Of a DNA stretch of 64,000 nucleotides, positions 6,032-41,068 are shown in pieces. Each line of letters starts with the position of its first letter. The first letter of the stretch is position 1. The stretch lies in contig OZ024754.1 of the NCBI GenBank assembly GCA_964016885.1, positions 24,366,001 to 24,430,000 of the forward strand. Reading direction: 5' to 3'. This stretch comes from Eledone cirrhosa. Lineage: Eukaryota. The notes beneath the pieces were generated by a model. That model was given only the letters and a program-made list of their open reading frames with translations, did no database searches and had not been told where the DNA came from. Made by a program: the position numbers and the translations under genes.

Positions 6032-6561
6032 GATTTTGAGTTTATGTTGGTTGTATACCAACACCTCAGTATGCAGGCTGGAGCACTCGACGATGTGCGC
6101 AGGTTGGTTTGGTTACTCCGGAGTAGTGTAAAATAAAGTTAAATAAAAGTCAAATGATTAAAATTTAGCTTCGTTTATTACTGCTATATATATTTCAGTG
6201 ACAGCCATCTTTGGCTGTGACCTCTTCAGGCAGTTTGAATTAGTATGGTATAGACAAGTACATATGTTATTTAGGTGTATGATATTGTCAATACTCTGAT
6301 ATGCCCAGTTCCTTGTTGGGTTGTTAATTCACTGGGGAACGGGAGTCCCGTTCCCCAGTGAATTAACAACCCAACAAGGAACTGGGCATATCAGAGTATT
6401 GACAATATCATACACCTAAATAACATATGTACTTGTCTATACCATACTAATTCAAACTGCCTGAAGAGGTCACAGCCAAAGATGGCTGTCACTGAAATAT
6501 ATATAGCAGTAATAAACGAAGGTAAATTTTAATCATTTGACTTTTATTTAACTTTATTTTA
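6031..6561. mobile_element. Fold-back PLE-type element (family P2): 216-bp-arm palindrome centred at 6345 plus ~98-bp tail
   Basis: 6129-6344 and 6346-6561 are reverse complements (one mismatch seen). A non-palindromic copy lies at 53105-53421. Flanked by (TA)n. Confidence 0.85.
6456..6510 (+). ncRNA. Minimal type-I hammerhead ribozyme (mirror copy on - at 6180-6234)
   Basis: ACTGC-CTGAAGA-GGT(C)ACAGCCA[AAGA]TGGCTGT(C)ACT-GAAA-TATATATA-GCAGT. Confidence 0.85.
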
Positions 6562-9817: not shown

Positions 9818-10497
<680 letters not shown>

Positions 10498-10870: not shown

Positions 10871-11157
10871 TGCTGTGAGAAGGATAATCCTCTACGCATT
10901 TTTCTTTTTGTAGATAATCGAAAGCTTATATATGATTGATTATCATTCTGTTATAAATATGATATTTTAAACAGATAATGTGCACATGTATAAAGCAAAT
11001 GATATACTTGTAACTGTGTAAATTGCGTGAAGTGAACAATCTGGTGTGTTTATTTTTGTGGCTTGTCAATGTATACAGTGACTTTTCTTTGCTCTATGAG
11101 TCGGGAAGACACTCGGCAAGAAATTGAAGCAAAACTGAAGGAAAAGGAAAAAACACA

Positions 11158-11209
<52 letters not shown>

Positions 11210-11210
11210 G

Positions 11211-14200
11211 GGAAGAAGACGCACGAGGTGGCGGAGGTCATGAAATCGCTCCCGTAAGTTTTGAATTTTTAACATATTTAAATCATTTGTGAAATAACAA
11301 CTCTTAGTACAAATGCTACGTAAAGCACCCGGCTTGAGCCCCAAAAAATTCGGACCCAAAATATATTGTTATAAGGCTCAAATATTCAAATATTCAACTT
11401 TGTATTGTACACTGTATATCCAAAAAAGAAAATGGCTATAAATGGAAGAAGAACCCCCCCCCCCCCTCCTCTCCCCTGTCTACACTATATAGAACAGCCA
11501 AACTCACCAACACCAGAAACTAGATACACTATATAGAACAGCCAAACTCACCAACACCAGAAACTAGATACACCACCCACCTCATCACCTGTGTACACTA
11601 AACACAACAGCCAGATAACGGCAATTTCACCACCACCGCTCACTACTGCCATCATTACCACCACTATCCCATCACCGCCGCCACCACTCTTCACTCCTTC
11701 ACTGACCACCACTGCCTCGGTATCGACATCACCACCACCACTGTCTCAGTATCGCTACCGCCGCCAGTCTCCCACTTCTCTAAGCTGGCTGCTGCCACCA
11801 CATTATAGAAGTCCTACTACTAAAAAAGAGGAAGGCATCAAAATATATAGATAGACTCAAAAGAAAAAAGAAAAAACAAACAACAAAACCAAAGCAGCAC
11901 AGCAACAACAGCAAAAAACGAGAAAAACAAACAGAGAAAAACAAAAACAAAAAACAAAACAAAAAACGTAAAGAAAATAAGAATGAAGAGAGAAGCAGGC
12001 GGACGGACAGAGAAGAGGGGGGAAAAACTAAAACTAAAAAAGCAAGAACTAAGTCAGACATTCGAACACTACATTACAATGAAACTTATGCTTATTCATT
12101 TTTGGGGCCCTTTCTGCCTGTGTGTTTGTTTGTTTATGTGTGTTCGTATACAGCGTGGTGATAATGCCACACAAGGGCCAAGTGGAACGGCGAATCCACA
12201 GATGGCTATGTAACCATACATTCGCCAATCCTCGATAAGAGTGTTTAAATATCGAACATAAACAGTTCGAATAACGGTGAAATGGAGACTAGAACGTCAT
12301 GTGACAGACTCTCACCCAACAGGTGCCCCCTGGCTCAGCAGCAGGAACCTGACTGTCAACCAAATACTGCTGATGTTGGAGGAAGAAGAAGAAGGAAAGG
12401 GGCCAGAACCAACTGGACGAAAGAATTGAATAAAACTGTTATGCAATGTTACCTGAAAAGTAACCCCAAGGAGAGGGGCTACAGGAGACGGATGCATAAC
12501 ATCTGGAACGAGATTGGTCTATTTAAATTAGATGAACAAAAATTGGCCGGACAGGCTCGGGTAATAAGAACTAATGGGTGGATAAGCGAGCTGGAACTGG
12601 AGGAACTGAGCAGAGAGAATGGCTTGGAGATGGAGGGTGTAGTATGCCAGACAAGCGAGCCAGTGGGAAATGAAGGTGAAGAGGTCCTGAGAACGGAGGA
12701 ACCACCCGAAGTAGACAATGATCTGAATACTGAGATAAATAATACCTGGAACAGAGATACGGCCACTGAGGAGATGAATGCTGACAGGCTAGGACAAGAT
12801 TCGGTTGACATCCTAAATTTAGTGGTAGATGAATTGAACAATGATAGTGGGAGACCTATGAACCTAAGATTTGTAGACAGGAAAAAGTTAAAAGAAACAA
12901 CAGCTAAGGTAAACAAAGTCATCCCATACCTTGAGGCGAGGAGCCTTCACCAGTGCAACAATATCCTCAAGGCAACAGCAAATACGGCGAGGAAACTACT
13001 TGGTATAAAAGCGAGAGGAAACAACAGACAAGAAAGAGCAGAGCCGTGGTGGAAGAAACGACTGAGTGGTCAAATCGGGGAAATGAGAAATGACATAGGA
13101 AAGCTTGAGTCACTACTGAATGGGACACTAAAAAACATAGGCACTAAAAATAGACTGGAAATAAAGTACAAAACTAGGAGGAAAAAGCTAAATATTATCA
13201 TAGAGGAACTGAAGCAACGCATTGTAGCAAAGAGTGCAAAAAATCAGGCGATACGAGAACAGAGTCAGTCAGTAGAAACAGAACCGCATGTTCGACAACA
13301 ACCAGAAGATGCTGTTTGGACAGCTTGAGGGGAAAGAAAGAGGCAACGACTTGATCCCTGGGGCGGAGCAAACTAAAACATTCTGGAGAGGAATATGGGA
13401 GCAGGATGTTAGACATAATGTCCAGGCAGGGTGGATTGAGACAGTACAGAGGGAGATCGGTGAGCAGGCACACCAACAAACTGATTTGAGTATCACAGTT
13501 GAAACTCTTAAGGGGCAGGCCAAAAAACTAACCAACTGGAAATTACCAGGCCCAGATGGTGTGCAGTGGTATTGGATTAAAAATTTAACATCCCTCCACC
13601 CGAAGCTGACGGCCATGTTCAATGACTGCTTGGTGTCGGGTGAGGTGCCAGAGTGGTTGACAAAAGGTACCACAGTTCTGATAATGAAAGACCGAATCAA
13701 GGGTAATGATGTTACCAACTATAGACCTATCATATGTCTGTCCGTAATGTGGAAACTGTTGACGAGCATTGTGTCTGAGGAAATCTACCATCACCTCCAC
13801 ACAAACAACTTGTTACCGGACGAACAGAAAGGATGCCGAAAGAAGTCACGTGGTACAAAGGACCAGTTACTTATTGATAAGATGGTAATGGGGAATTGCA
13901 GGAGGAGACACACTGATCTTGCCATGGGATGGATAGACTACAGAAAGGCATTTGACATGGTGCCTCATTCTTGGATCACCAAAAGCCTGGAGATCTTCAG
14001 AGTGGCAGATAACATCAGACAGTTGCTGGGCAGGAGTATGGGGTCCTGGGAGACAGAGTTGACATCAACTGGAGTATCCTTGGGAAGCGTGAAGATCAAG
14101 AGAGGTATCTTCCAGGGAGATAGCCTGTCCCCTCTGTTGTTTGTCCTTGCCCTGATGCCCTTGACCATTATGCTGCGAAAAGTGAGAGCAGGATACAAGT

Positions 14201-15749
14201 TGGGAAAGGGAGCGCTTACCATCAATCACCTCCTCTTCATGGACGATCTTAAGCTCTTCGGGAAAAGTGAGAAGGAGTTGGATGTGCTTGTTGACACTGT
14301 CCGTATTTTCAGCAGTGATATATGTATGCAGTTTGGTATTAGTAAATGTGGAGTCATTGTGATAAGGAGGGGTAGGTTGAGCAGAAGTAACGGGATCCAG
14401 ATACCAACAGGTGAGATGATAAAGGAAATTGACTCTGAGGAAGGATACAAGTATTTGGGCGTTCTGGAGGCTGATGGCATAAAGAACAAAAAAATGAAGG
14501 AATTGTTAAGAACTGAATACATTAGGAGAGTAAGGAGCGTATTGAAGTCACATCTGAACAGCAGAAATGCCATAAGCGCAGTAAATTCCCGAGCTGTGTC
14601 TATTATTAGGTACAGTGCGGGAATTCTGAGATGGAATGTTGCTGAACAAAAAGAAATGGATAGGAAGACTAGGAAGCTATTGACTATCTACAACATGTTC
14701 CACAAGAGGAGTGATGTCGATAGACTCTACCTAAGGAGATCTGAGGGTGGAAGAGGTCTTATCAGCATAGAGGACTGTGTTCAGATGGAGAAAAACAACC
14801 TATACAAATACGTGACCTATAGTAAGGAGTCAATGCTCAGAACTGTACTGAAGGAGGGGACAGTAGGCCAGGGGATGTCCAAGGAGGAAATAACATCAAG
14901 GAGGAAGAGCAGCCTTAAGGGAAAATCCCTTCATAGTACCTTCTTTGAGAAAACTGAATTTAGAGATCCACAGACATGGAACTGGTTGAGAAGAGGAGAC
15001 CTCAAAAAGGCTACAGAAGGAATGCTAATGGCTGCGCAGGAGCAGGCCCTCAAAACGAAGTGGTTGAAGCACCATATTTACAAGGAGGAGGCTAGCCCAC
15101 TGTGCAGGATCTGTGGAGAGAGAGAGGAGACTGTGGCTCACATTGTGTCCGAGTGTAAACACCTAGCCCAGACCCACTATAAGGGCTGGAGACACGATGT
15201 GATGGGCAGGGTGATCCACTAGCACCTGTGCAAAGTAAACAATTTACCACATTCTGAGAAATGGTATGAGCATAGGCCAGAGGCGGTGATGGAGAACAAT
15301 CAGGTGAAGGTGCTGTGGGATTTTAGGATACAGACGGACAAGAAACTGGAACACAATAGACCTGACCTGGTGGTTGTGGACAAAGAAAAAAGATCGTGTC
15401 TGATTGTGGATGTGGCCTGCCCTTTCGACACGAGAGTGCAAGAGAAGGAGAGGGAGAAAATTAACCGATACCAGGACCTAAAGTGGGAGGTGAAAAGGAT
15501 TTGGAACTGCCATGAAGTCAAAGTGATCCCGATTGTCATAGGCGCACTGGGGACTATCTCCAAAAGTTTCCAGGGATGGTTAAAGAAAATCGGCCCCTTC
15601 ACGCTTTTTGGAACGCTTCAAAAGCATGCTTGCTGGGAACAGCAAGAACCCTCCGATACGTCCTGAATATCTGAGGCTGCAGGTAGTGGCTTGATATTCA
15701 TTCCAACGGACTTTCCAGTTAACCAACATCAATGACTGAGATTCAAGGA
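11211..15749 (+). mobile_element. R4/Dong-clade RLE non-LTR retrotransposon, family D1, full-length copy A
   Basis: Bounded by (TAA)n on both sides. The 5' region is homologous to that of copy C. One disrupted RT-CCHC-RLE ORF. Confidence 0.9.
12282..15674 (+). pseudogene. Dong ORF: N-terminal domain, reverse transcriptase, zinc knuckle, restriction-like endonuclease (frameshifts ~13240 and ~15620, stop 15220)
   Basis: [49 protein letters not shown]...IVDVACP...EK. Confidence 0.92.
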
Positions 15750-15783
15750 ATAACAACAACAATAATAATAATAATAATAATAA

Positions 15784-16718
15784 TGAAAGAACTGCTACAG
15801 AAACTGGCTAAGAAATGGCAAGAAAAGCCTCTGTATGGAAAATACCCAGAGCGAGCTAACAATCCTGATGTTGACAAAACTTTAACCCATCAGTGGTTGG
15901 CATCCTCTGGACTGAAATCGGAGACTGAAGGACTGATTATATCGGCACAAGATCAGTGTCTGCCAACAAAAAATTACCAAGCCAACATAATAAAAAATGG
16001 GTGCAAGCCCATTATGCCGTGTATGCAAAAAACAACCAGAGACCATTGACCATATAATTTCAATGTGCAGTCCTATAGCTCCAACAGAATACCTAAACAG
16101 GCATGACAGAGCTGCACAATACATACATTGGATAATGTGTAAGCATTTTGACCTGCCCCATCAAAAGAATTGGTGGGAGCATCAACCACCTCCCATACTT
16201 GAAAAAGATCACATCTCAATCTTGTGGAACTTTAGCATCCAAACAGACCGAAAAATAGATGCAAACAGACCTGATATAATATTGAAAGACTTTCAAAAGA
16301 GGGTATGCCTGCTAATTGATATGTCTGTTCCAATAGACAAGAATGTATCTATAAAAACATTTGAAAAATTGAGCAAGTATAAGGACCTGGAGATAGAAAT
16401 TGGAAAAATGTGGAAATTGAGAACTAAAACAATACCAGTGGTTGTAGGTGCTCTGGGAATGATACCTAAGGGGTCTAATGATTACATATCGCAAATCCCA
16501 GGAAACCCGCGTATAGGAGAAATACAAAAGATAGTACTAATGGGAACTGCCCATATACTAAGGAAGATTCTGTCAATATAAGTACATCTAAACACTAAAG
16601 ATGCATGTGTGAATATGTATGTTCTTTCTTGAACATGGCGGACCTTGTTGTCTCTTGAGGTCACTGGTTGTGACTTGGTGATAACTCGTATGAACATAAA
16701 GCAAGATAAATGCAACTG
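15784..16718 (+). mobile_element. R4/Dong family D2, 5'-truncated (CCHC and RLE)
   Basis: CRVCKKQPETIDHIISMC, RHD, RPDIIL..LIDMSVP; between (TAA)n tracts. Confidence 0.9.
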
Positions 16719-16743
16719 TAATAATAATAATAATAATAATAAT

Positions 16744-17170
16744 GATTTCTTTATTAACCACAAGGGTTTACATAAAGTAGACATTAAGGACAGTGCAGGA
16801 CAATACAGTACGGTACAAATGGGCATTTCTGCGTGTAAAAAACAAAAACAGAGGATGTAACAAAAAAATAACAATGAAAAATTCCCCAGTAGGGGGGAGA
16901 CTTCGGAGGGACATTTGTGGAGAAAGCCCATTAAAAGGCCACAGTGACCCTGACCACCAGGGCAAGTGCCCTCTCCCAGTTTTCCACCTTTAATTTACAG
17001 ACACATACTCAGAGTAGGCCCATTCACTCGGGCCATTCTTGCTTCTTTCGGTGATGCCCTGATTGACTTTTTCAAATAAAATTTGAAAAAGTCAATCAGG
17101 GCATCACCGAAGAGGTAAGTGCTCGTCTTCAGCCCTTTCAAACGTGTCCACCATACTATCTCTTTCGCCA
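16744..17170 (-). mobile_element. Tx1-like 3' fragment
   Basis: Matches the 3' end of 17428-23256; (TAA)n on both sides. Confidence 0.9.
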
Positions 17171-17187
17171 TAATAATAATAATAATA

Positions 17188-17404
17188 ATTGTCATAGGCG
17201 CACTAGGTACTATCTGAAAGAGTTTCCAAGGATGGTTAAAGAAAGTTAGTCCAGCCCCTTTTTGGAACACTTCAAAAAGCATGCTTGCTGGGAACAGCAA
17301 GAACCCTCCGATACGTCCTGAATATCTGAGGCTGCAGGTAGCGGCTTGATATTCATTTCAACAAACTTTCCAGTTAAATAACATTAATGACTGAGACTCA
17401 AAGA
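17188..17404 (+). mobile_element. Dong D1 3'-end fragment
   Basis: Matches 15532-15749; (TAA)n on both sides. Confidence 0.9.
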
Positions 17405-17670
17405 ACAATAATAATAATAATAATAATGTTTTCTTTATTAACCACAAGGGTTTACATAAAGTAGACATTAAGGACAGTACAGGACAATACAGGACGGTAC
17501 AAATGGGCATTTCTGCGTGTAAAAAAACAGAGGATGTAATAAAATAACAAAGAAAAATTCCCCAATAGGTGGGAGACTTCCGAGGGACATTTGTGGAGAA
17601 AGCCCATTAAAAGACCGCAGTGACCCTGACCACCAGGGCAAGTGCCCTCTCCCAGTTTTCCACCTTTAAT

Positions 17671-20600
17671 TTACAGACACATACTCAGAGTAGGCCCATT
17701 CACTCGGGCCATACTTGCTTCTTTCACCCATCTTTCAACAAAATGCTGGGAAGAGAGCACTTCCCTCTCTACCCTGATTTTCCTTTTCAAATGAAATTTG
17801 AAAAGGTTAATCAGGGCATCACCGAAGAGGTAAGTGCTCGTCTTCAGCCCTTTCAAACGTGTCCACCATACTATCTCTTTCGCCATGGCCACCAGACAGA
17901 TAAAAAATGCCTGCCCTTCCCCGCTAAAGGAAGAGGGCGGGGCAATCCTCAGCTGATAGCTGGATCCGTCCTACACGTGACAGCAGGTGTTCGACATAAA
18001 CCCACAAGTCAGCAATGCTCGGCCACTGGACGAGTGCGTGCAGGATGGCACCTCCATGCCTGTAGAGTTTATCCCGAACTGGCAAAGCTCCCCGGTAGCA
18101 CTGCCAGGCCAGGGATTTCTGGAAGTTGTCCATAGGCCCCGGCCCGAAAGTCCGTCCGAAGAGATTGGCTAGCTGATTTTCGTCGACGCCTAGAGTTTCT
18201 CCAAGTACGTCGTCGATCTTCCCCTCCACTAATCCTCTATAGAACGCCAAGGTGGAGTTTCCACCGATCACATTGCCCGATTGGTCGAGGGCTGTGAGCG
18301 CCTGAAGACATTCCAGTCTCCAAGCGCTCCCTCTCGGTCTTCGCTTGACCCAGGACTGCAGCTCCGTCAAGGAGACGAGCTGGTGAAAGACGTGTCTAGC
18401 AAACGGCGACCACACCTGATCACCGTCGAGGAAGAGGTGGAGATGTCGTAGCCTAAGCGCGTGTCTGCGCATCATCAGCCACGGCATGCCCAGCCTTCCA
18501 GGTAGCGGGTGTTGACAGCAGATGGACCGCCTAACCATCGGAGCGCGTCCCTTCCACAAAAAGCGAAAGAGCAAACGCTCCAGCGCAGTCAGGCGAGGCT
18601 TAGGACAAAATACGACGGTCAGGCGGTAGCAGATGACAGACGCGATGTACGCGTTAGCCACCTCCGCTCGACCTTTCATGGATAGCTTCCTCTCGGCCCA
18701 TTTCTGGGTGAGAGAAGCCACCCTGCTCGTCACCTCGTCCCAGTTTTTCTCCGTCTGGAGGTCCGTATCGAACCAGACCCCTAGCAATTTAACCGGTCCG
18801 TCCGTCCAGCGCCCGACGACGCTGTTGGACGGCATGGACCTGCCTCTCCAGGTGCCGAGCTGCAAGCCCACTGACTTTTCCTAGTTGATCATTGCTCCTG
18901 TCACCGCTTCGTATTCTCTTAGTGTAGTGCCGATCGCCTCGATGTGTTTGGCGTTCGACACCACTACGGTGACATCGTCCGCATATGCTGACACGGATCT
19001 TCCGCATCCTAGTTCGCGCGGGACCCCCATCAACGTCTCCAGTTTGTGCAGTAATGGCTCGAGAGTCAATACGTACAAGAGGGACGAGAGGGGACATCCT
19101 TGGCGGACCGAGCGCATGATGTTGAACGGTTCCGAAAGGTGACCGTTCACTCTCACCACAGAGCAGATGTCGCTGTGCATGGCAGCGGTCCAGCCTCTGA
19201 AGGCGGGCCCAAAGCCAGCCGCCCTCAGGACTGCCGCTAGGTAACGATGGTCGACCCTATCGAAAGCTTTCGACTGATCTAAATTGATCAAGGACCCACC
19301 CGTGCCAGGTTCCCTAGCTACTCTCTCTACGATGTATCGCATGAGGTGGAGGTTGTCGTGGATGGATCTGTCGGGAATGGCGCATGTCTGCGCCTCTCCC
19401 ACCAGACCACCAACGACAAGCGCCAACCTCTTTGCTAGCACCTTGGCCAAAATCTTGAACTCTGTGTTTAGCAGAGTTATGGGCCTAAAATTATCTATGT
19501 TATCCCCCTTGTTCGGATCCTTTCTCAGCAGCGCCACCGCTCCTCGGCTCACAGAGCTGGGAATTCTCCCGTTCTGTTTCCAGTTGCAGTAGACGTCCGC
19601 CAAGAGGCCTCCGAACAAGTCTGGCATTTGTACGTAAAATTCATAGGGCAGACCATCCAAACCAGGCGATTTACCCCTTGTGCAGCCAGTCATTGCCTCC
19701 CGTACTTCAGCGGCTGTTATCGGCTTTTCGCAACACTCCGTCTCAGTGGCCGAGAGCCGCGGCAGTCCGTCGAGGTAGACACTAAAGTCCATCCCTCGAT
19801 CCGGCCCGCCGCTGCCCCCGAACAGTTGAGCGAAGTGTCGCTGAAAAGCTTCACACATTTGCCAGGGATCGAGTATCATGCGCCCGTCGTGGTCCACCAA
19901 AGACCGGATCGTGGCTTTGTTGCCACGACGCGCCTCCGCCACTCGGGCCCATTGAACGGCTTTCGTTTCCTCGTGTCTGAGAGCACGCACCCTAGCTCTG
20001 ACAACGCAGCCTTCGTGCTTTGCATTGAAGAATTGGTCAAGGGCCAATTTCGCCGCAAGTACGTCGGTCGCGATGCCTTTGCTAAGCGCCTCGTCTAATT
20101 TTCTAACTAATTCTCCCTCTGCTCTATTTTTCTCTATTGCTAAAGCCTTACTAAACCTAATGGACTCTATTCTAATTGCTCTTTTCAGAGCAAACCACCA
20201 CTTGTTGTTGACGATGGCCCCCGTCAACGCCCGCTTAACTAGTTCGCTAATCCGGTCTCTGTAGGCCTTGCGCGCTGGTAAGGACGCGTTTAGCTTCCAG
20301 TAGCCGGGTCCTATCTAAGTCAAGCACACAGATCACGAATTTGTGGTCCATGTAGCTGACTATCTTGAATTGTGGACAGCCTATGCTAGACCTATCTATT
20401 TCCCTACAAAATACTCTATCTAGATATGATCTGGATGACCCTATGCGATTTGTCCAAGTCCACATTGGTACATTCGGGAAATCCAATCGGTACCTGTCAG
20501 ACAGTTCAAAACGCCTGAGCAGGTTGGTGAGACTCTTGCACCCTCCTCCCCTATCCACTAATCCCACACAATCCCAGCGTGCATCTAAGATCCCGTTCCA

Positions 20601-21022
20601 GTCGCCCACTAACACTAAAGAGCGGGACGTTCCAAGAAAGGTCTCCAGACGCCGGAAGAAATCAGGCCGCCCTGCTCCTGTCGGGGCATAGACGGCCACT
20701 AGCCTGAAAGCTTGCCCGTCTCCGCTGGTCACGTCCAGCACCACCAACTTACCTTCTCGGTCCAGGAAGATGGCCCGTATGGCAAGATCCAAACCTCTCC
20801 GAAAAAGCACAGCAACTCCTCCCCCGATCCAGGACGGCTGGGAGATGCGTACACATCGCAGCCGCCGAAGATCGTTGCGAAGGTCCGTGCTTCGGAGATT
20901 CTGGTCTCGCTGATGGCCACTACATCTATGTTTAGTGACCTGAGGTCGTTGAGCAGGTGGCCCTGCTTCCATGACGACCCCAAGCCACGCGCATTTATGC
21001 TGCCTATTCTGAGTGAGGTCAT
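17671..21022 (-). pseudogene. Tx1 ORF2 (APE endonuclease, RT, Cys-rich C-terminus), disrupted
   Basis: MTSLRIGSINARGL, VVAISET, VYAP, LVGDWN, YLDR, DH; GKSPGLDG, FRPITLLN, KAFDRVDH, RQGCPLS, AYADD. Confidence 0.92.
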
Positions 21023-21056
21023 GTTGAAATGGAGTGGAAAAGATGGGAAAGACCAC

Positions 21057-23052
21057 TTACCTTACTTCTCGTAGAGGAAGGACGGTTTTTCCATCCTTTT
21101 CACTGCTTGTGGCCTCCTCAGGAAGGATGTCCTTATAAATCCTCTTGGAGAGTGCTTGTCGGAAGTTTCCGATGTCTTTGGGGAATTTTTGTTTTAGTGT
21201 CATGTACTTTTTCTGAGTGATGCGAGTGATTTGTATGTGTGGAGGTGGTGTGAATTTTTGGGTTGTTGTGTAGTCTTTTTCTGTGATGCTGGTATTGTGT
21301 TGGATGTAGTGTAATAATTGGTTGTTGTTCAAATTTAATGCTGTGTAGTGTGTATCGTTTTGGTTGTTTTGTTTGCGTTTGTTGTGGGTTTGTTTCTGTT
21401 TCGCATTTTAGTGACTTTTGTGGTGTAGGTGATGGTGGTGTTGGGGTTAATGATGGTGATGGTGTTGGTGTTTGGGGTGATGGGGTTGGTGATGCTGGTG
21501 TGGATGGTGGCATATCTGTCCTAACTTTTTTATTTGTTAATTTATTTGTTTCCCTCTGTATTTTGTTTTTGGAGGGGGAAGGAAGAGAATTTTTTCTTTT
21601 TTGGTTTCTTTTTTTCTTTTTTCCTGATACCGTTTCCCACTCCTCGTCGTCACAATCTGTCTCCAGTTGTGATAGGCCGGGGAGTGGAAAATCCTCCGCA
21701 GGCGTTAGTTTTGGTTGTGGCGTGGTGGATGGTGTAGGCGCTGGTGCTAGTTCTGAAGCGTTGGGTGGTGGTGGTGTTGGTTTTGCTGGTGGTGGTGGTA
21801 TTGGTTTTGCTACTGTTGCTGGGGTTGTTGCTGTTATAGTTGCTTCTGTTGTTGCTGCTACAGTTGTTGCTGCCATCTCTGCTACTGGTAGTGTTGATGG
21901 TTGAGTCACTGGTGTGGGTAGGAGAGGTGGCCTCAACCTTTTAGCCTGAGGGCAGAAAGCCCTTAGGTGGGTTCCTTCACCACAAACGACACACCTAGGC
22001 CTTCTGCCCTCGACAATTACAGTGAGGTGGCTGCCGTCAGTGAGGTCTATTACCTCTGGGATCTCCTCAATGCTTTTTTGGTCCGCTTGGATCAGGAGCG
22101 CCATCCCAGATCCGGACCAGTTCTCCTGCCTTTCTTTTGCTATTGCTATTATATTGGTGTTGGCTTCGATGCCGGCGCGGACGGCCGCTATTAGCCAGGG
22201 AATTTCGATGGCCGGTGGAACGTGGGTCACCCTGATCTTTACGAGTCTCTGGCCACAATAGCTTGGGACGAGTGTGAAGTCGTCACTTCTTAATGGGGCC
22301 ATGGAGTGTTCTCTAGCCTCCTCTGGTGTTTCAAAGAACACGTCCACGGTTCCATACTTCTGCCCACGTCTGATGTGGGTTTTTCTTGCCCACACATGTC
22401 CCAAAGCTTTTTGGATTTGGGACTCGGATGCCCGTTCCACTCGGCGCGATTTTACATTAATTGCTCGATACGACACGGTGCAAAGGCGCCGATGCTCCAT
22501 TTTATTAGGTGTGGGGGGAGGGGGGGGGGGCTGACCCTGTACCCATCTTTCTTTACCATTTCTTTGGCATTTTCTAATTCCTCCTGAGTTACCGTAAATG
22601 CTTCGCACTGTTTTGCTACTCTGGCAAAACTCAGGGTGGTTTTTTTAATGTCATTGTTGCTGTTGTTGTTATCGTTATTTTTGTTATTATTAATTTTAGT
22701 TTCAGTTGTGGTGGTGGTGACGTCAGTGGTGTTCGGTGTGGAAGAGTCCATTTTGGTTGAAAACATTTCGACATCACGAGTTGATTTATTTTTTTCCTTT
22801 TGTTTCTGTTGTCGCGGTGGTGGTGGGGGTGGTGGTTGTCGCGGTGGTGGTGGTGGTGGTGGCGGCTTTAACACCTGCAGTCATTGGTAATGGCGGGAAA
22901 TGATTGTCTGCCTGAGACAAATTTAAAATATTGCTAGTGCTTAAATTGTTTGTGTTGGCAAACGTAGTAATATTTACAAGGGTGGTGTCGGTGTGAGGTG
23001 TTATTTTGCGAGGAAGCCTCTCAGCTGCTTGGTGCAGAGGTGAATTAGCCAT
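21057..23052 (-). pseudogene. Tx1 ORF1 (gag-like, CX2CX4HX4C knuckle, Pro/Thr-rich), frameshifted at homopolymers
   Basis: RCVVCGEGTHLRAFC; lies upstream of ORF2; pieces 23052-22786, 22874-22452, 22608-21133 and 21332-21057. Confidence 0.8.
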
Positions 23053-23277
23053 TTTTTTTCAAAGAAATTTTTTGATAATCATAAAAGTTTAAATTTTGGG
23101 CACAAGGCCCCAATCTTTTTGGGTGTCCTTTTCGGAAAACAATGTATGTGCGCTTATAAACAGTTAATAATAAAATTTTCCATGGCAATTTTTAACAAAC
23201 GGAAATAACAAACCTTTGCGGAGCTCACGATGATACGATTTACTACGTAGGTCGCCAATAATAATAATAATAATAAT

Positions 23278-27605: not shown

Positions 27606-27652
<47 letters not shown>

Positions 27653-27653
<1 letters not shown>

Positions 27654-30600
27654 TTTTCTTTATTAACCACAAGGGTTCACATAAAGTAGACATTAAGGAC
27701 AGTGCAGGACAATACAGTACGGTACAAATGGGCATTTCTGCGTGTAAAAAACAAAAACAGAGGATGTAACAAAAAATAACAATGAAAAATTCCCCAATAG
27801 GGGGGAGACTTCGGAGGGACATTTGTGGAGAAAGCCCAGTAAAAGGCCACAATGACCCTGACCACCAAGGCAAGTGCCCTCTCCCAGATTTCCACCTTTA
27901 ATTTACAGATATATACTCAGAGTAGGCCCATTCACTCGGGCCATTCTTGCTTCTCTCACCCATCTTTCAACAAAATGCTGGGAAGAGAGCACTTCCCTCT
28001 CTACTCTGATTTTCCTTTTCAAATGAAATTTGAAAAAGTCAATCAGAGCATCACCGAAGAGGTAAGTGCTCGTCTTCAGCCCTTTCAAACGTGTCCACCA
28101 TACTATCTCTTTCGCCATGGCCACTAGACAGATAAAAACTGCCTGCCCTTCGCGGCTAAAGGAGGAGGGCGGGGCAATCCTCACGATGGACTCAGATGAT
28201 AGCCGGATCCGTCCTAAACGCGACAGCAGGTGTTCGACATAAACCCACAAGTCAGCAATTTTCGGACACTGGACGAGTGCGTGCAGGACAGTTTCGTCGC
28301 CCTGCGCGCATCTCGGACATGCCCGGCTGACGGCACCTCCATGCCTGTAGAGTTTATCCCGAACTGGCAAGGCTCCTCGGTAGCACTGCCAGACCAGAGA
28401 TTTCTGGAAGTTGTCCATAGGCCCCGGCCCGAAAGTTCTTCCGAAGAGATTGGCTAGTTGATTTTCGTCGACGCCTAGAGTTTCCCCAAGTACGTCGTCG
28501 CTCTTCCCCTTCACTAATCCTCTATAGAACGCCGAGGTGGAGTTTCCACCGATTACATTGCCCGATTGGTCGAGGGCTGTGAGCGCCTGAAGACATTCCA
28601 GTCTCCAGGCGCTCCCTCTCGGTCTTCGCTTGACCCAGGACTGCAGCTCCGTCAAGGAAACGAGCTGGGGAAATACGCGTCTAGCAAACGGCGACCACAC
28701 CTGATCACCGTCGAGGAAGAGGTGGAGATGTCGTAGCCTGAGCGCGCGCCTGCGTATCATCAGCCACGGCATGCCCAGCCATCCACGTAGCGGGTGTTGA
28801 CAACAGATGGACCGCCTGACCATCGGAGCGCGTCCCTTCCACAAAAAGCGAAAGAGCAAACGCTCCAGCGCAGTCAGGCGAGGCTTAGGACAAGGTACGA
28901 CGGTCAGGCGGTAGCAGATGACAGACGCGATGTACGCGTTAGCCACCTCCGCTCGACCTTTCAGGGATAGCTTCCTCTCCGCCCATTTCTGGGTGAGAGA
29001 AGCCACCCTGCTCGTCACCTCGTCCCAGTTTTTGTCCGTCTGGAGGTCCGGACCGAACCAGACCCCTAGCAATTTAACCGGTCCGTCCGTCCAGCGTCCG
29101 ACGACGCTGTTGGACGGCATGGACCTGCCTCTCCAGGTGCCGAGCTGCAGGCCCACTGACTTTTCCTGGTTGATCATTGCTCCTGTCACCGCTTCGTATT
29201 CTCTTAGTGTAGTGCCGATCGCCTCGATGTGTTTGGCGTTCGACACCACTACGGTGACATCGTCCGCATATGCTGACACGGATCTTCCGCATCCTAGTTC
29301 GCGCGGGACGCCCCTCAACGTCTCCAGTTTGTGCAGTAATGGCTCGAGAGTCAATACGCACAAGAGGGACGAGAGGGGACACCCTTGGCGGACCGAGCGC
29401 ATGATGTTGAACGGTTCCGACAGGTGACCGTTCACTCTCACCACAGAGCAGATGTCGCTGTGCATGGCAGCGATCCAGCTAATCCCACACAGTCCCAGCC
29501 TGCATCTAAGATCCCGTTCCAGTCGCCCACTAACACTAAAGAGCGGGACGTTCCAAGAAAGGTCTCCAGACGCCGGAAGAAATCAGGCCGCCCTGCTCCT
29601 CTCGGGGCATAGACGGCCACTAGCCTGAAAGCTTGCCCGTCTCCGCTGGTCACGTCCAGCACCACCAGCTTACCCTCTGGGTCCAGGAAGATGGCCCGTA
29701 TGGCGAGATCCAAACCTCTCCGAAAAAGCACAGCAACTCCTCCCCCGATCCAGGACGGCTGGGAGATGCGTACACATCGTAGCCGCCGAAGATCGTTGCG
29801 AAGGCCCGTGCTTCGGAGATTCTGGTCTCGCTGATGGCCACTACATCTATGTTTAGTGACCTGAGGTCGTTGAGCAGGTGACCCTGCTTCCATGACGACC
29901 CCAAGCCACGCGCATTTATGCTGCCTATTCTGAGTGAGGTCATGTTGAAAATAGAGTGGAAAAGATGGGAAAGACCACTTACCGTACTTTTCGTAGAGGA
30001 GGGATGGTTTTTACATCCCTTTTCACTTGATCGTCTGGTGAAGGGACCGTTGAATCGTCCCTTCGGCTGGTCGTCGGCTCTTCTATGAGTATGTCTGAAT
30101 ATACTCTTCGATTGATAGTTCATCCTAGGTCCCTGAAATCACCAACTGCGTTGGGGAATTTCGTTTTAATGTTTGTGTATTGTTTCTGTGCTATTTTTAG
30201 CAGTCTTATGTTAGTTGGCGTTTTGATTGGTGCTGGTATTATGTAGTCGTGTTGTGAAATGTCTGTGTGTTCAATTATGTAAGTCATTAGTTTCTTGTGC
30301 GTATTTATTGCCGTGCATTTATGTTTCTGGGGGTGGGGGGTGGTTCTGCTATTTTCTTGTCGTTGTTGCTGGGTGTGTGTGTTTTGTTGTTGTGTTTGCG
30401 ATGTTGGTGCTTGTGGTGGTGGTGTTGAAGGTGTTGTTGGCGGTGGGGTTGTCGCCGGTGGTGATGGTGGTGCTAGTGTGGGTGGTGATGGTGTTGGTGG
30501 TGTTGCTGCTGTGAGTCTCTTTGTAGTAGACTTTACCCTTTTCTCATTTCTTTCCTCCCTTTTCAAAGGCGACGATGCGCTGCTTCTGCGTTTGTGCCTT

Positions 30601-32299: not shown

Positions 32300-32340
<41 letters not shown>

Positions 32341-32341
<1 letters not shown>

Positions 32342-33008
32342 TTCAATGTGCAGTCCTATAGCTCCAACCGAATACCTAAACAGGCAGGACAGAGCTGCAC
32401 AATACATACATTGGATAATGTGTAAGCATTTTGACCTGCCCCATCAAAAGAATTGGTGGGAGCATCAACCACCTCCCATACTTGAAAAAGATCACATCTC
32501 AATCTTGTGGAACTTTAGCATCCAAACAGACCGAAAAATAGATGCAAACAGACCTGATATAATATTGAAAGACTTTCAAAAGAGGGTATGCCTGCTAATT
32601 GATATGTCTGTTCCAATAGACAAGAATGTATCTATAAAAACATTTGAAAAATTGAGCAAGTATAAGGACCTAGAGATAGAAATTGGAAAAATGTGGAAAT
32701 TGAGAACTAAAACAATACCAGTGGTTGTAGGCGCTCTGGGAATGATACCTAAGGGGTCTAATGATTACTTATCGCAAATCCCAGGAAACCCGCGTATAGG
32801 AGAAATACAAAAGATAGTACTAATGGGAACTGCCCATATACTAAGGAAGATTCTGTCAATATAAGTACATCACAAGTCTAAACACTAAAGATGCATGTGT
32901 GAATATGTATGTTCTTTCTTGAACATGGCGGACCTTGTTGTCTCTTGAGGTCACTGGTTGTGACTTGGTGATAACTCGTATGAACATAAAGCAAGATAAA
33001 TGCAACTG
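32341..33008 (+). mobile_element. R4/Dong family D2 3' fragment
   Basis: Nearly identical to 16058-16718. Confidence 0.9.
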
Positions 33009-33327
33009 TAATAATAATAATAATAATAATAAAATAAAAAACAGAGGAAGAAGACACACATGGTGGAGAGAAGGTCGAGAAATCGCTCCCGTAAGTTTTG
33101 ATTTTTTAACATATTTAAATCACTTGTGAAATAACAATTCTTAGTACAAATGTTGCATAAAACATCCAGCTTGAGTCCCAAAAAATTCGGATCCACAATA
33201 TATTGTTATATTGCTCAAATATTCAATTTTGTATTATACATTTTATATTCAAAAAGAAAATGGTTATAAATGGAAGGAAACCCCCTCTGTCTACACTATA
33301 TAGAACAGCCAAATAACAGCAATTTCA

Positions 33328-35470
33328 CCGCTGCCTCACTATCGCTACCGCCGCTATTCTCTCCCACTACCTCCTGCTAGTTGCTGCTAGCACAGCATCG
33401 CCACCGCCGCCGCTGCCTCAATATCACTACCGCCGCTATTCTCTCCCGCTGCCCCCTGCTACATTGTAGAATTCCCACTAAAAGAGGAAAACATCAAAAT
33501 ATATAAATAGACTGAATTGATGACCTGGTCAAAATAAAAAAAAAAACAAAACAAAAATCAAAATCAACATCAGAAACTAGATACACCACCTACCCCATCA
33601 CCCCTCTGTGTACACTAAACACAACAGCCCGATAACGGCAATTTCACCACCACCACCACCAATCTCAGCATAATAATAATAATTACTATTACTATTGCCT
33701 CAAGTTTTAGTTTTAACAAAATGTTTAATTCCAATATTATGGGTAAATGTCAACACATACACGCGACTAACGATAATTTCACTCAAGATAATTTCCCCAC
33801 CAATACCACCACCACTACCACGATGAAAACTCTGGTCAAGTCGACTCAAATTTCTACTCCAACTTCAACACCATCACTACAGTAATACGACCACATCACC
33901 ACCACCGCTGCCTCACTATCGCTACCGCCGCTATTCTCTCCCACTACCTCCTGCTAGTTGCTGCTAGCACAGCATCGCCACCGCCGCCGCTGCCTCAATA
34001 TCACTACCGCCGCTATTCTCTCCCGCTGCCCCCTGCTACATTGTAGAATTCCCACTAAAAGAGGAAAACATCAAAATATATAAATAGACTGAATTGATGA
34101 CCTGGTCAAAATAAAAAAAAAAACAAAACAAAAATCAAAATCAAGTTTTAGTTTTAACAAAATGTTTAATTCCAATATTATGGGTAAATGTCAACGCATA
34201 TACGCGACTAACGATAATTTCACTAAAGATAATTTCACCACCAATACCACCACCACTACCACGATGAAAACTCAGGCCAAGTCGACTCAAATTTCTACTC
34301 CAACTTCAACACCATCACTACAGTAATACGACCACATCACCACCACCGCTGCCTCACTATCGCTACCGCCGCTATTCTCTCCCACTACCTCCCGCTAGGT
34401 GCTGCTAGCACAGCACCGCCACCGCCGCCGCTGCCTCAATATCACTACCGCCGCTATTCTCTCCCGCTACCGCCTGCTACATTGTAGAATTCTCACTAAA
34501 AGAGGAAAACATCGAAATATATAAATAGACTGAATTGATGACCCGATCAAAAAAACAAAAAAAAAACAAAAAACAATAATCAAAATCAAGTTTTAGTTTT
34601 AACAAAATGTTTAATTCCAATATTATGGGTAAATGTCAACGCATATACGCGACTAACGATAATTTCACTAAAGATAATTTCACCACCAATACCACCACCA
34701 CTACCACGATGAAAACTCTGGTCAAGTCGACTCAAATTTCTACTCCAACTTCAACACCATCACTACAGTAATACGACCACATCACCACCACCGCTGCCTC
34801 ACTATCGCTACCGCCGCTATTCTCTCCCATTACCTCCTGCTAGTTGCTGCTAGCACAGCACCGCCACCGCCGCCGCTGCCTCAATATCACTACCGCCGCT
34901 ATTCTTCTCCCGCTACCCCCTGCTACATTGTAGAATTCTCACTAAAAGAGGAAAACATCGAAATATATAAATAGACTGAATTGATGACCCGATCAAAAAA
35001 AAAACAAAAAAAACAAAAAACAATAATCAAAATCAAGTTTTAGTTTTAACAAAATGTTTAATTCCAATATTATGGGTAAATGTCAACACATATACGCGAC
35101 TAATGATAATTTCACTAAAGATAATTTCACCACCAATACTACCACCACTACTACGATGAAAACTCTGGTCAAGTCGACTCAAATTTCTACTCCAACTTCA
35201 ACACCATCACTACAGTAATACGACCACATCACCACCACCGCTTCCTCACTATCGCTACCGCCGCTATTCCCTCCTGCTAGATGCTGCTAGCACAGCACCG
35301 CCACCACTCCCGCCACCGCTGCCTCAGTATCACTACCGCCGCTATTCTCTCCCGCTACCCGCTGCTACATTGTAGAATTCCCACTAAAAGAGGAAAACAT
35401 CAAAATATATAAATAGACTGAATTGATGACCCGGTCAAAATAAAAAAACAACAACAAAAATCAAAATCAA
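33328..35470 (+). repeat. ~445-bp tandem satellite, ~5 units
   Basis: Marker CCGCTKCCTCACTATCGCTACC at 33328, 33905, 34346, 34791 and 35238. Confidence 0.92.
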
Positions 35471-35797
35471 AGCAGCACAGCAACAACGAAAAACGTAAAG
35501 GAAATAAAAATGAAGAGAAAACAAACGGACGGACAGAGAAGGGAAGGGAAAAACTAAGTCAGACATTCAAACACTACATTACAATGAAACTTATGCTTAT
35601 TCATTTTTGGGGTTTTTTCTGCCTGTTTGTTTGTTTGTTTGGGTTCGTCTACAGCGTGATAATGCCACACAAAAGTCACGTGGAGTGACGAAACCACCGG
35701 AGACAAGTAATTCACCGGTGGTTATGTAACCATACATTCGCCAATCCTCGATAAGAGTGTTTAAATGTCGAACCTAAACAGTTCGAATAACGGTGAA

Positions 35798-38700
35798 ATG
35801 GAGACTAGAATGTCATGTGACAGACTCTCACCCAACAGGTGCTCCCTGGCTCAGCAGCAGTGACCTGGCTGTCAACCAAATACTGCTAGTGTCGGAGGAA
35901 GAAGAAGAAGGAAAGGGACCAGAACCAATTGGACGAAAGAATTGAATAGAACTGTTATGCAATGTTACCTGAAGAGTAACCCCCAAGGAGAAAGGCTATA
36001 GGAAAAGGATGCATAACATCTGGAACGAGATTGGTCCATTTAAATTAGATGAACAAAAACTGGCCGGGCAGGCTCGGGTAATAAGAACTAATGGGTGGAT
36101 AAGCGAGCTGGAACTGGAGGAACTGGGCAGAGAGATTAGCTTGGAGATGGAGGGTGGAGTATGCCAGGCAAACGAGCCAGTGGGAAATGAAGGTGAAGAG
36201 GTCGAGAGAACGGAGGAACCACCCGAAACAGACAATGATCTGAATGCTGAGATAAATAATACCTGGAACAGAGATACGGCCACTGAGGAGATGAATGCTG
36301 ACGGGCTAGGACAAGATTTGGTAGATATCCTAAACTTAGTGGTAGATGAATTGAACAATGATAGTGGGAGACCTATGAACCTAAGATTTGTAGACAGGAA
36401 AAAGTTAAAAGAAACAACAGCTAAGGTAAACAAAGTCATCCCATACCTTGAGGCGAGGAGCCTTCACCAGTGCAACAATATCCTCAAAGCAACAGCAAAT
36501 ACGGTGAGGAAACTACTTAGTATAAAAGCGAGAGGAAACAACAGATAAGAAAGAGCAGAGCCTTGGTGGAAGAAACGACTGAGTGGTCAAATCAGGGAAA
36601 TGAGAAATGACATTGGAAAGCTTGAGTCCCTACTGAATGGGACACTAAAAAACATAGAGACTAAAAATAGACTGGAAATAAAGTACAAAACTAGGAGGAA
36701 AAAGCTAAATATTATCATAGAGGAACTGAAGCAATGCATTGTAGCAAAAAGTGCAAAAATCAAGCGATACGAGAACAGAGTCAGCCAGTATAGACAGAAC
36801 CGCATGTTCGACAACAACCAGAAGATGCTGTTTGGACAGCTTGAAGAGAAAGAAAGAGGCAACGACTTGATCCCTGAGGCAGAACAAACTAAAACATTCT
36901 GGAGAGGAATATGGGAGCAGGATGTTAAACATAATGACCAGGCAGTGTGGATTGAGACAGTACAGAAGGAGATCAGTGAACAGGCACGCCAACAAACTGA
37001 TTTGAGTATCACACTTGAAACTCTTAAGGGGCAGGCCAAAAAACTAACCAACTGGAAATCACCTGGCCCAGATGGTGTGCAGGGGTATTGGATTAAAAAC
37101 ATAACATCCCTCCACCCGAAACTGACAACCATGTTCAATGACTGCTTGATGTCAGGTGAGGTACCAGAGTGGTTGACAAAAGGTACCACAGTTCTGATCA
37201 TGAAAGACCGAATCAAGGGTAATGATGTTACCAACTATAGACCTATCACATGTCTGTCCGTAATGTGGAAACTGTTGACAAGCATTATGTCTGAGGAAAT
37301 CTACCATCACCTCCACACAAACAACTTGTTACCGGACTAACAGAAAGGATGCCGAAAGAAGTCACGTGGTACAAAGGACCAGTTACTTATTGATAAGATG
37401 GTAATGAGGAATTGCAAGAGGAGACACACTGGTCTTGCCATGGGATGGATAGACTACAAAAAGGCATTTGACATGGTGCCTCATTCTTGGATCACCAAAA
37501 GCCTGGAGATCTTCAAGGTGGCAGATAACATCAGGCAGTTGTTGGGCAAAAGTATGAAGTCCTGGGAAACAGAGTTGACATCAACTGGAGAATCCTTGGG
37601 AAGCGTGAAGATCAAGAAAGGTATCTTCCAGGGAGATAGTCTGTCCCCTCTGTTGTTTGTCCTTGCCCTGATGCCCCTGACCAGTGTACTGCGAAAAGTG
37701 AGAGCAGGATACAGGTTGGGAAAGCGAGGGCTTACCATCAATCACCTCCTCTTCATGGACGATCTTAAGCTCTTCGGGAAGAGTGAGAAGGAGTTGGATG
37801 TGCTTGTTGACACTGTCCGTATTTTCAGCAATGATATATGTATGCAATTTGGTATTAGTAAGTGTGGAGTCATTGTGATGAGGAGGGGTAAGTTGAGCAG
37901 AAGTAACGGAATCCAGATACCAACAGGTGAGATGATAAAAGAAATTGACTCTGAGGAAGGATACAAGTATTTGGGCGTTCTGGAGGCTGAAGACATCAAA
38001 AACAAAAAAATGAAGGAATTGATAAGAACTGAATACCTTCGGAGAGTAAGGAGCGTATTAAAGTCACATCTGAACAGTAGGAATGCCATAAGCGCAGTAA
38101 ATTCCTGAGCTGTGTCTATTATTAGGTACAGTGCGGGAATTCTGAGATGGAATGTTGCTGAACAAAAAGAAATGGATAGGAAGACTAGGAAGCTATTGAC
38201 TATCTACAATATGTTCCACAAGAGGAGTGATGTCGATAGACTCTACTTAAGGAGATCTGAGGGTGGAAGAGGTCTTATCAGCATAGAGGACTGTGTTCAG
38301 ATGGAGAAAAACAACCTACACAAATACGTGACTGATAGTAAGGAGCCAATGCTCAGAGCTGTACTGAAGGAGGGGACAATAGGCCAGGGGATGTCCAAGG
38401 AGGAAATATCATCAAGGAGAAAGAGCAGCCTTCAGGAAAAATCCCTTCATAGTACCTTCTTTGAGAAAACTGAATTTAGAGATCCACAGACATGGAACTG
38501 GTTGAAAAGAAGAGACCTTAAAAAGGCTACAGAAGGAATGTTAATGGCTGCGCAGGAGCAGGCCCTCAAAACGAAGTGGTTGAAACACCACATTTACAAG
38601 GAGGAGGCTAGCCCACTGTGCAGGATCTGTGGAGAGAGAGAGGAGACTGTGGCTCACATTATATCCGAGTGTAAACACCTAGCCCAGACTCACTATAAGG

Positions 38701-39191
38701 GCTGGAGACATGATGTGATGGGCAGGGTGATCCACTGGCACCTATGCAAAGTTAACAATTTACCACATTCTGAGAAGTGGTATGAGCATAAGCCAGAGGC
38801 GGTGATAGAAAACGATCAGGTGAAGGTGCTGTGGGATTTTAGGATACAGACGGACAAGAAACTGGAACACAATAGACCTGACCTGGTGGTTGTGGACAAA
38901 GAAAAAAGATCGTGCCGGATTGTGGATGTGGCCTGCCCATTCGAAACGAGAGTGCAAGAGAAGGAGAGGGAGAAAATTAACCGATACCAGGACTTAAAGT
39001 GGGAGGTAAAAAGGATTTGGAACTGCCATGAAGTCAAGGTGATCCCGATTGTCATAGGCGCACTAGGGACTATCTCAAAAAGTTTCCAGGGATGGTTAAA
39101 GAAAATTGGCCCCTTCACGCTTTTTGGAACGCTTCAAAAGGCATGCTTGCTGGGAACAGCAAGAACCCTCCGATACGTCCTGAATATCTGA
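35798..39191 (+). pseudogene. Dong ORF of copy C (RT-CCHC-RLE) with several stops and one frameshift
   Basis: Same motifs as copy A; stops near 35860, 36546, 37338 and 38106. Confidence 0.92.
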
Positions 39192-39840: not shown

Positions 39841-40034
39841 CTCATGAAGAAGAGAAACAGTCGTAGATTGGACGACACGTTGCTTATTTCGAGGAGTAAG
39901 TTTTGTTTAATTTGGTATTCCCTAACACGAAAATTCGACAAATTATTTCACCACTTATCTCTACAAATAATCTGATACTAGTTGTGAGAACTGCATAAAT
40001 ATTTTTATATATTTACCCATTACAATCGCTGTTT

Positions 40035-40142
40035 ATCCCGCCGAGGTTAACTTTGCCTTTCATCCTTACAGGGTCGATAAAATAAAGTACCAGTAATACA
40101 CTGGGTAATTGCTGGCCTTGTGCCAAAAGTAGAAACAATTAT
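40035..40142 (+). mobile_element. SINE 3' part
   Basis: CCGCCGAGGTTAACTTTGCCTTTCATCC...GGCCTTGTGCCAAAAGTAGAAACAATT. Confidence 0.8.
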
Positions 40143-40877
40143 TTAAAGAAAAGAAACGGAAAACACACTGTTTATTTCGGGGGATAAGTTCTGTTTAATC
40201 AAAGATCCGACTAATTATTATGCAATCATCTCTGTGGCTGAAGATGTGAAAGGTGCATATATATTTTTAAATATTTCCCCAATACAATTTACTTTTTTTT
40301 ACATTTTGGTCGATTGTGGCTAAATTTCAGATTTTGAAAGGAAAATGGACAGTTGAAAGATCACTTCTCTCTCCCACCACCACATTCACAACCACTTCCT
40401 CACACATTCACACCAGTAAATCCCCAATCTATTTTTAGACTACTGTCACTGACTGTTACCTACCTCTCTTCTCAGTGTCTAATGTGTGGGTATATATATA
40501 TATGTGTGCATATACATACGTGTGTATAAGTATGCACGTGTGAGTGTATATTTATGTATGTGTATGGAGCCCACATAAAGGACAAAACAAAGGGGGAGAA
40601 AAAAAGAATACTAGCACCCCAGTTTCCCCTCAAACTCAAAATAAACAGAAAATAACACCGGAGAAGCAACTCCTATAAGCTACAATGTCACACTACCCAC
40701 TACCACTCCCAGCACCCCCACCCCCAGCATTAATCTCCCTGCCACCACCACCAACACCACTCACACCACAAGAACAGTTGAGAAAATTCTCGTACACCTT
40801 TTACATCTGCAACCATAACAATATCACCTCAATCAACAACAGCAATGACCATAACTATACAGTTATAATAATAATAA

Positions 40878-41062
40878 TAATTGTTTCTACTTTAGGCACA
40901 AGGCCAGCAATTATCCAGTACATTACTGGTACTTTATTTTATCGACCCGTAAGGAAGAAAAGCAAAGTTAACCTCGGCGGGATTTGAACTCAGGCTGTAA
41001 AGGGACGTAACTATGCTAGAAAGCATGGCGTCCAACCCTCTACTGATACTGCCAATTCACCA
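40878..41062 (-). mobile_element. tRNA-derived SINE
   Basis: Same family as 1701-1847, with (ATT)n tail. Confidence 0.85.
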
Positions 41063-41068
41063 ATAATG

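Follow-up and report, generated by a model that had tools for sequence, protein, structure and literature searches.

The window, by which we mean the whole 64,000-nt stretch of Eledone cirrhosa DNA analysed here, holds two copies (A and C) of a retrotransposon family that we call D1, together with 5'-truncated copies of a second family (D2) and the 5' UTR of a third (D3) (Table 1). From its architecture and its target, D1 would appear to be an R4/Dong-type element. An intact D1 frame of 1,141 codons, stop to stop, was found at locus L281, and in Pfam searches of the D1 pieces RVT_1 was present and Exo_endo_phos absent (no AP endonuclease), with nothing significant, a SANT/Myb-like domain included, for the N-terminal piece. 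The best PDB matches of D1 were R2 proteins, the match to R2Tg reaching residue 1102, and the translation contains CRIC..H...C and RPDLVVVD..D, which we take to be a CCHC knuckle and the PD..D motif of a restriction-like endonuclease. The hallmarks of Penelope-like elements, namely a GIY-YIG endonuclease and a telomerase-like RT, are lacking in D1, which resembles Penelope in the position of its donor alone. Its insertion site, (TAA)n, is that of R4/Dong, being named as the Dong target in the cited section of PMC7998251; moreover, the R4/Dong elements described in the cited sections of three accounts likewise have a single ORF with RT and a C-terminal endonuclease, and insert into (TAA)n (PMC7998251, PMC13282606, PMC9115989). 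According to the main text of one of these, Dong-R4 elements are abundant and recent in Octopus vulgaris (PMC13282606).

Table 1. Features of the D1, D2 and D3 elements in the window (positions counted from its first nucleotide).
Feature	Position	Strand	Remark
(TAA)16 target tract ahead of copy A	11160..11207	+	
44-nt leader, 5' end of family D1, also of D2 elsewhere in the genome	11210..11253	+	
GTAAGT splice donor, copy A	11254..11259	+	5 genomic loci (4 events) are joined exactly here
175-nt segment ending AAAAAAG, copy A	11254..11428	+	D2 counterpart of ~167 nt removed exactly in L150 and L154
Low-complexity UTR interior, copy A	11429..12057	+	prone to tandem duplication; A-type segments ~900 or ~1,210 nt
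D1-only AG-free GT-rich tract ending TACAG (proposed acceptor), copy A	12058..12153	+	use: none detected
Rest of 5' UTR, 128 nt, 3 upstream ATGs, copy A	12154..12281	+	
D1 single ORF, copy A (RT, CCHC, restriction-like endonuclease)	12282..15674	+	broken in copy A, intact in L281
3' UTR plus (TAA)n tail, copy A	15675..15783	+	
5'-truncated D2 copy within tail of copy A	15784..16718	+	
5'-truncated D2 copy whose TAA tail hosts copy C	32341..33008	+	
Leader of copy C (C-type subfamily)	33044..33090	+	
Donor plus 166-nt segment ending AAAAAG, copy C	33091..33256	+	
Four tandem copies of 441-nt UTR unit, copy C	33700..35471	+	94% match
AG-free tract and TACAG, copy C	35563..35654	+	
D1 ORF of copy C	35798..39191	+	broken
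GTAAGTTTTG in 5' UTR of third Dong-type family, D3	39896..39905	+	D3 ATG at 41207

The initial annotation had read the 5' UTR of D1 as containing a retained spliceosomal intron, running in copy A from 11254 to 12153. Its landmarks are borne out: GTAAGT starts at 11254 in copy A and at 33091 in copy C, in both right after AAATCGCTCCC, the last base of TACAG is at 12153 and 35654, and the ATG follows 128 and 143 nt on (12282 and 35798), with enclosed segments of 900 and 2564 nt, most of the longer one stemming from its four tandem 441-nt units. Given the composition of the UTR, GTAAGT is expected 0.009 times in the first 60 nt and 0.17 times in the whole UTR. The 11254-12153 segment has GT..AG ends and an AG-free 3' tract, AG being absent from the 96 nt (copy A) and 92 nt (copy C) preceding TACAG; this tract is GT-rich rather than pyrimidine-rich (12 pyrimidines in the 20 nt ahead of CAG), and TACAG is outscored by three further YAG sites within this UTR. 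The further claim, that the enclosed segment has far more indels than the ORF while both boundaries are conserved, needs qualification. When copy A was compared with four C-type loci, gaps per 100 nt were most frequent in the middle of the UTR (5.8-6.5) and nil at the ORF start; they were not confined to the proposed intron, with values of 4.8 in the leader, 1.2-1.8 in the first 175 nt past the donor, and 1.6-2.4 in the UTR past TACAG. Substitutions were most frequent in the leader (17-19%), followed by the segment (11-12%), the stretch past TACAG (9-11%), and the ORF (6%); the 3' UTRs of A and C differ by 12%. The boundaries are not islands of conservation, because the leader and the UTR past TACAG are gapped as well and substitutions are highest in the leader.

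That leader and donor belong to the mobile unit is evident from the genome at large, where a 17-letter motif of leader plus GTAAG has 1,710 copies on both strands. Independent insertions, on which the initial annotation proposed to check this, do carry the leader and the segment: at all 30 A-type loci sampled, the leader, donor, and TACAG lie behind (TAA)n amid varied flanks, with donor-to-TACAG segments of 880-1,222 nt, and at 30 C-type loci the leader lies behind a TAA or GAA tract, with the donor intact in 29 and a segment of 1,001-1,637 nt in the 19 where TACAG fell inside the locus. The flanks differ among both sets of 30 and are often the 3' ends of other elements. Moreover, the 1,710 copies intact at the donor agree with the view that unspliced RNA is the usual template.

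The same leader and donor also front D2, a second Dong family with an RT region 40% identical to that of D1. D2 carries these and then 450-580 nt of the D1 module, diverges beyond, and is without the TACAG site; its 5' UTR is 1,139 nt long and has 13 ATGs. Among 40 leader-bearing places, which are the start of a listing of 100, 28 lead to a D1 ORF, 10 to D2, and two to neither. When the 5' modules were put in one tree (38 rows, comprising 37 of those 40 places plus L061; L104, L109, and L110 were omitted since the region is absent there), the grouping of the D2 modules as one clade was rejected (AU p 0.002), which points to repeated swapping of the 5' module between D1 and D2.

Some variation was also noticed at the fronts of these elements. 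In two D2 copies (L065:2800-3110 and L079:2800-3110) the leader is replaced by a different sequence shared by both, possibly the end of a DNA transposon, and the D2 5' UTR contains a fixed inverted fragment of the end of a common SINE (e.g., L061:3845-3895). Many 5' junctions (L025, L053, L060, L087, L092, L096, and L148) pass from (TAA)n into (GAA)n or briefly repeat the opening bases of the leader, a pattern suggestive of slippage on its GAAGAAG during second-strand priming.

A small number of genomic copies are joined exactly at the donor. The leaders that lack a following G number 23; all were inspected, and they comprise 19 donor mutants and four joined copies, while among 12 leaders followed by G but not by GT one more was joined (L283). 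In total these are five loci, or four events, among about 1,750 leader-bearing copies (about 0.3%), and to this extent the earlier view of a functional consensus donor is upheld. In L150 and L154, the leader is joined at CCC to AAAATGG, directly past an AAAAAAG about 167 nt downstream (window equivalent 11428), and without microhomology at the junction. The local pair L148/L149, counted as one event, is joined 5 nt before that AG, at a point where 12 of 12 unjoined relatives viewed have no AG, and with a possible one-base overlap (C). In L283, the leader is joined to a SINE inserted in the D2 UTR; this breakpoint is ambiguous by one base (a shared G), and the join position is preceded by TAG or CAG in 65 of 101 SINE matches, the acceptor being read from these other SINE copies as no parent of L283 with its SINE acceptor was found. 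A deletion from donor to AG, of the kind by which SpIREs are recognised, is thus seen in three of the four events (L150, L154, and L283). Furthermore, three of the joined copies (L149, L150, and L154) are D2 elements of full length with TAA on either side; target-site duplications are unreadable inside the TAA.

L150 and L154 are, by their placement in the tree, independent events: L150 groups among unspliced copies (support 100/99) and apart from L154, the two leaders differ, and their union in one clade was rejected (AU p 4.5e-29, 23 rows, with L141 omitted as short). Recombination between copies could also move one junction onto two backgrounds. As controls, we looked for long deletions at breakpoints near the donor in 43 variant element copies, and found none at -4 (0/12, four further matches not being elements), +2 (0/11), +3 (0/13), or about +41 (0/7); the chance of four events falling at one of the five positions is about 0.0016. 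D1, the commoner family, has none of the four events, all of which fall in D2 (p about 0.005). No junction occurs beyond a single locus or a local pair, which is compatible with a dead end of reduced promoter activity but does not show one. Further variant searches yielded no additional joins: none was seen in the nine of 30 loci viewed from two broader searches (2,108 and 424 matches, mostly tandem-unit variants), a narrower one returned only two known joins among nine matches, and another gave no new join among the 30 viewed of 45 matches. Taken together, the joins make it likely that GTAAGT is a real, rarely used splice donor.

At the proposed 900-nt intron, on the other hand, no copy joins the leader to CGTG. 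The junction motif had 0 genomic matches, in a search that misses leaders mutated inside the motif, exons whose first bases are GTA, and joins from any other donor with a terminal G, and none of the 23 leaders not followed by G runs into CGTG. Precisely intron-less copies were thus absent, both by the junction motif and among the donor and acceptor variants. The RNA data gave a similar picture. Run X4 is RNA, as three 14-3-3 exons, separated by two GT-AG introns, are matched perfectly by one 650-nt contig, and the DNA run X1 is without these exon joints; no host exon that might have served as a built-in control was recognised by eye among the 151 listed frames of the window. On copy A, which along with the 14-3-3 control gene was where X4 was examined, the donor is bridged unspliced by a contig at 11209-11387 and by a D2-like one at 11209-11315, these two leader contigs accounting for the whole first-bin depth (162.4), and the TACAG site is bridged unspliced at 12078-12432. 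We found no joint in X4 on copy A, although in this one unstranded contig set of unspecified tissue the absence is not proof, because contigs drop rare forms, and the contigs themselves may reflect read-through of host transcripts. Because no spliced RNA was seen, we infer splicing here from the DNA copies. The claim that 11254-12153 is an intron is consequently not upheld, nor is the companion claim that the spliced form is the mRNA. About a quarter of the leader-bearing copies (10 of 40, all D2) are, moreover, without the TACAG site.

Two observations on the RNA runs stand apart from this question. Over 11339-12142, most of the UTR interior, the X4 contigs sum to a depth about 5-20 times as high as over the leader, the 85 nt that follow the donor, and the ORF start, and there is no such rise in the DNA run X1, depth being in any case a poor measure; tandem-expanded units, host transcripts carrying the piece, or antisense RNA could account for it. 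In run X6, labelled as organism C, a contig crosses the leader and donor at 11209-11309 with six differences and one gap, so that the module may be present in a related organism.

In our assessment, the account with a reasonably good claim to be correct is that of a 5' UTR module with a real but seldom-used donor, from which SpIRE-like by-products arise. The module is probably an internal Pol II promoter. Unspliced full-length RNA would serve as the main mRNA and as the template for target-primed reverse transcription into (TAA)n, and the spliceosome would occasionally join the leader to the nearest usable AG in an RNA that then integrates, leaving dead-end SpIRE-like copies. The donor may be kept through overlap with a promoter element, or through U1 binding near the start that aids transcription, rather than for intron removal. 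In favour of this account are the 1,710 intact copies of leader plus GTAAG set against zero joins to CGTG, and the fact that the deletions start at the donor, with three of four events ending at an AG of unspliced relatives or of the SINE. Against it, L148/L149 ends 5 nt before an AG and not past one, AAAAAAG is a poor splice acceptor, and the account leaves the restriction of all four joins to D2 unexplained.

A Penelope-like germline cycle with two RNAs, in which the donor is spliced to give the mRNA (at TACAG in D1 and at the short acceptor in D2), the unspliced RNA is the template, and the rare joined D2 copies are leaks, strikes us as rather improbable, even with its short-intron version counted in. 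If it holds, an RLE non-LTR element would have a genuine retained intron. It has to face the point that D2 RNAs cut at the donor did integrate, so that copies of a D1 mRNA would be expected as well if its splicing were common, except where integration depends on something in the D1 segment.

Narrower in scope, and unlikely in our judgement, is the proposal that the functional intron is the short one of 166-175 nt, from the donor to AAAAAAG, which, as a promoter intron in the manner of Penelope, would normally be removed from the mRNA but stay in the template. This proposal draws on two independent exact removals, on the position of the segment in the module common to D1 and D2, and on D3, where GTAAGTTTTG is followed by TTTGAAG/AAAAG 157-162 nt on. 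However, the short-acceptor AG is kept in only four of 17 copies sampled from the A-type D1 group, the largest and apparently the youngest, the X4 contigs pass through the donor unspliced, the D3 similarity beats all 500 shuffles in only one of six comparisons, and none of 24 D3 copies viewed is joined at its donor. 

There is only a slight chance that 11254-12153 is after all a true D1 intron, whose spliced form is the mRNA and of which only the unspliced form integrates, for instance because the intron holds a needed RNA element. The consensus donor 44 nt from the 5' end and the 92-96 nt free of AG before TACAG would suit such an intron, its removal would lower the upstream ATGs from 11 to four, and the TACAG context is kept across the D1 subfamilies, with 1,426 intact A-type sites. 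Moreover, D1 is without short-spliced copies, which would fit the preferential use of a stronger acceptor further downstream, and Penelope likewise keeps a 75-nt intron 46 nt past its start site, as described in the cited part of PMC2377424. Yet joined D1 copies number zero among roughly 1,200 D1 leaders (28/40 x 1,710; upper 95% bound 0.25%), though spliced D2 RNAs integrated, and none of the TACAG variants is joined to the leader: all nine of the A-type are point changes, and the 12 of the C-type are 10 point changes, one 9-nt deletion, and one 5'-truncated copy. The X4 contigs cross both donor and TACAG unspliced (with the same proviso on rare forms), D2 has its long, ATG-rich UTR and no such acceptor, and the transcripts of Penelope are, in that same section of the source, mostly spliced (PMC2377424).

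As poor a prospect attaches to the idea that the joined copies result from a jump of the reverse transcriptase onto free leader RNA ending at the donor (e.g., a released 5' exon), or are plain DNA deletions. R2-type reverse transcriptases are capable of end-to-end template jumping, and the L148/L149 junction, with its possible one-base overlap and no AG at its end, could be so explained. Speaking against this are the three of four events that end at AG positions, two of them independently at the same base, and the lack of deletions at the control positions; besides, a free leader RNA with its end at the donor would already presuppose a cut by the spliceosome at that site. As for copies A and C sharing the region only through duplication of host DNA, nothing beyond the initial annotation's own caveat speaks for it, and segmental duplication is ruled out because the copies number 1,710, on both strands, and the flanks differ among the 30 A-type and 30 C-type loci.

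With the preferred account, in which a promoter-like module carries a seldom-used donor, the closest likeness is to the SpIREs of human L1, for which the cited part of the source gives 131 of 6,609 full-length copies, mostly unspliced 5' UTRs, and a donor kept by a promoter site (PMC5860796; Larson et al. 2018). Both have one conserved 5' UTR donor, several acceptors, and rare spliced RNAs that integrate, so that spliced copies form a small share. The differences are that ours is an RLE-type element with a single ORF, in an invertebrate; that the share is about 0.3% against about 2%; and that here the donor lies 44 nt from the 5' end, the module is common to two distant families, and the promoter role is putative. 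The 5' UTR introns of Penelope and Chlamys-3 are alike in a donor about 45 nt from the start, in a putative promoter region, that is retained genomically (PMC2377424, PMC8557442), and in Penelope of D. virilis, as far as the cited part goes, most transcripts are spliced and both sites conserved (PMC2377424). These, however, are PLEs (GIY-YIG) with conserved acceptors and mostly spliced transcripts (PMC2377424, PMC8557442), whereas here the acceptors are not conserved across families, the RNA contigs are unspliced, and spliced copies integrate. In mammalian L1, the cited part of a preprint describes promoter replacement and capture of host first exons, by which sequence resembling a first exon, with a donor at its end, can come to form the front of the element (bioRxiv 10.1101/2025.02.02.635956); as there, 5' regulatory sequence varies here independently of the ORF, but in our case the donor travels together with the intron-like sequence downstream of it.

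For R4/Dong itself, the cited sections of three accounts (PMC7998251; O. vulgaris, PMC13282606; O. bimaculoides, PMC9115989) make no mention of a splice donor, spliced copies, or a shared UTR, and the terms 'intron', 'splic', and 'UTR' each occur 0 times in the main text of the O. vulgaris paper (PMC13282606). The literature searched, mostly open-access and without Repbase or supplements, gave no introns or spliced copies in R4/Dong. Chlamydomonas LINEs may contain introns, though the sources consulted did not bear this out. Spliced-and-integrated copies, described for human L1, would with the present loci extend to a distant endonuclease class in an invertebrate. They also supply an internal control for claims of intron retention: as spliced RNA of these elements can integrate, the rarity of a given splice among the template RNAs can be gauged from the absence of intron-less copies. 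Moreover, a start-proximal donor that is conserved and swapped, while the acceptors are not, offers a direct test of why retroelements keep donors, be it promoter overlap or U1-linked transcription. A new life cycle is not established unless germline RNA shows dominant splicing.

In the third family, D3, the 5' UTR is some 1.45 kb long, and GTAAGTTTTG lies about 460 nt in from the 5' end (window 39896-41207; L370-L394). About 160 nt past this motif lies a degenerate repeat of the preceding 60 nt, into which SINEs often insert. The D3 UTR was considered as a homologue of the D1/D2 module and rejected, the similarity being weak (shuffles as good in 0/500 in one comparison and in 21-417/500 in the other five).

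A U1 anti-polyadenylation role in copy A was likewise considered and is unsupported by the counts of AATAAA (0 in its UTR, 4 in that of C, and 2 in D2). Rfam searches for a ribozyme gave nothing credible at the 5' end over 11150-12400 (three weak matches, E 0.3-4.8) or in two D2 loci. By eye, we noticed HDV- and twister-like pairings near the ATGs, and short hairpins around a GTAAC motif 60-80 nt upstream of the ATG in D1, D2, and D3 (window 12210-12282; L061:3990-4140), for which there is no Rfam family. Elsewhere in the window, perfect or near-perfect inverted repeats, with identical frames on both strands, are found at 10056-10260, 6161-6529, and 53235-53402, and frames resembling GIY-YIG/Penelope fragments were seen by eye near 2387-2713 and 55304-55861. 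Lastly, L1/Tx1-like elements with AP endonuclease and RT occupy 16720-23260 and 27630-32300 on the minus strand, in the same TAA tracts and in the opposite orientation.
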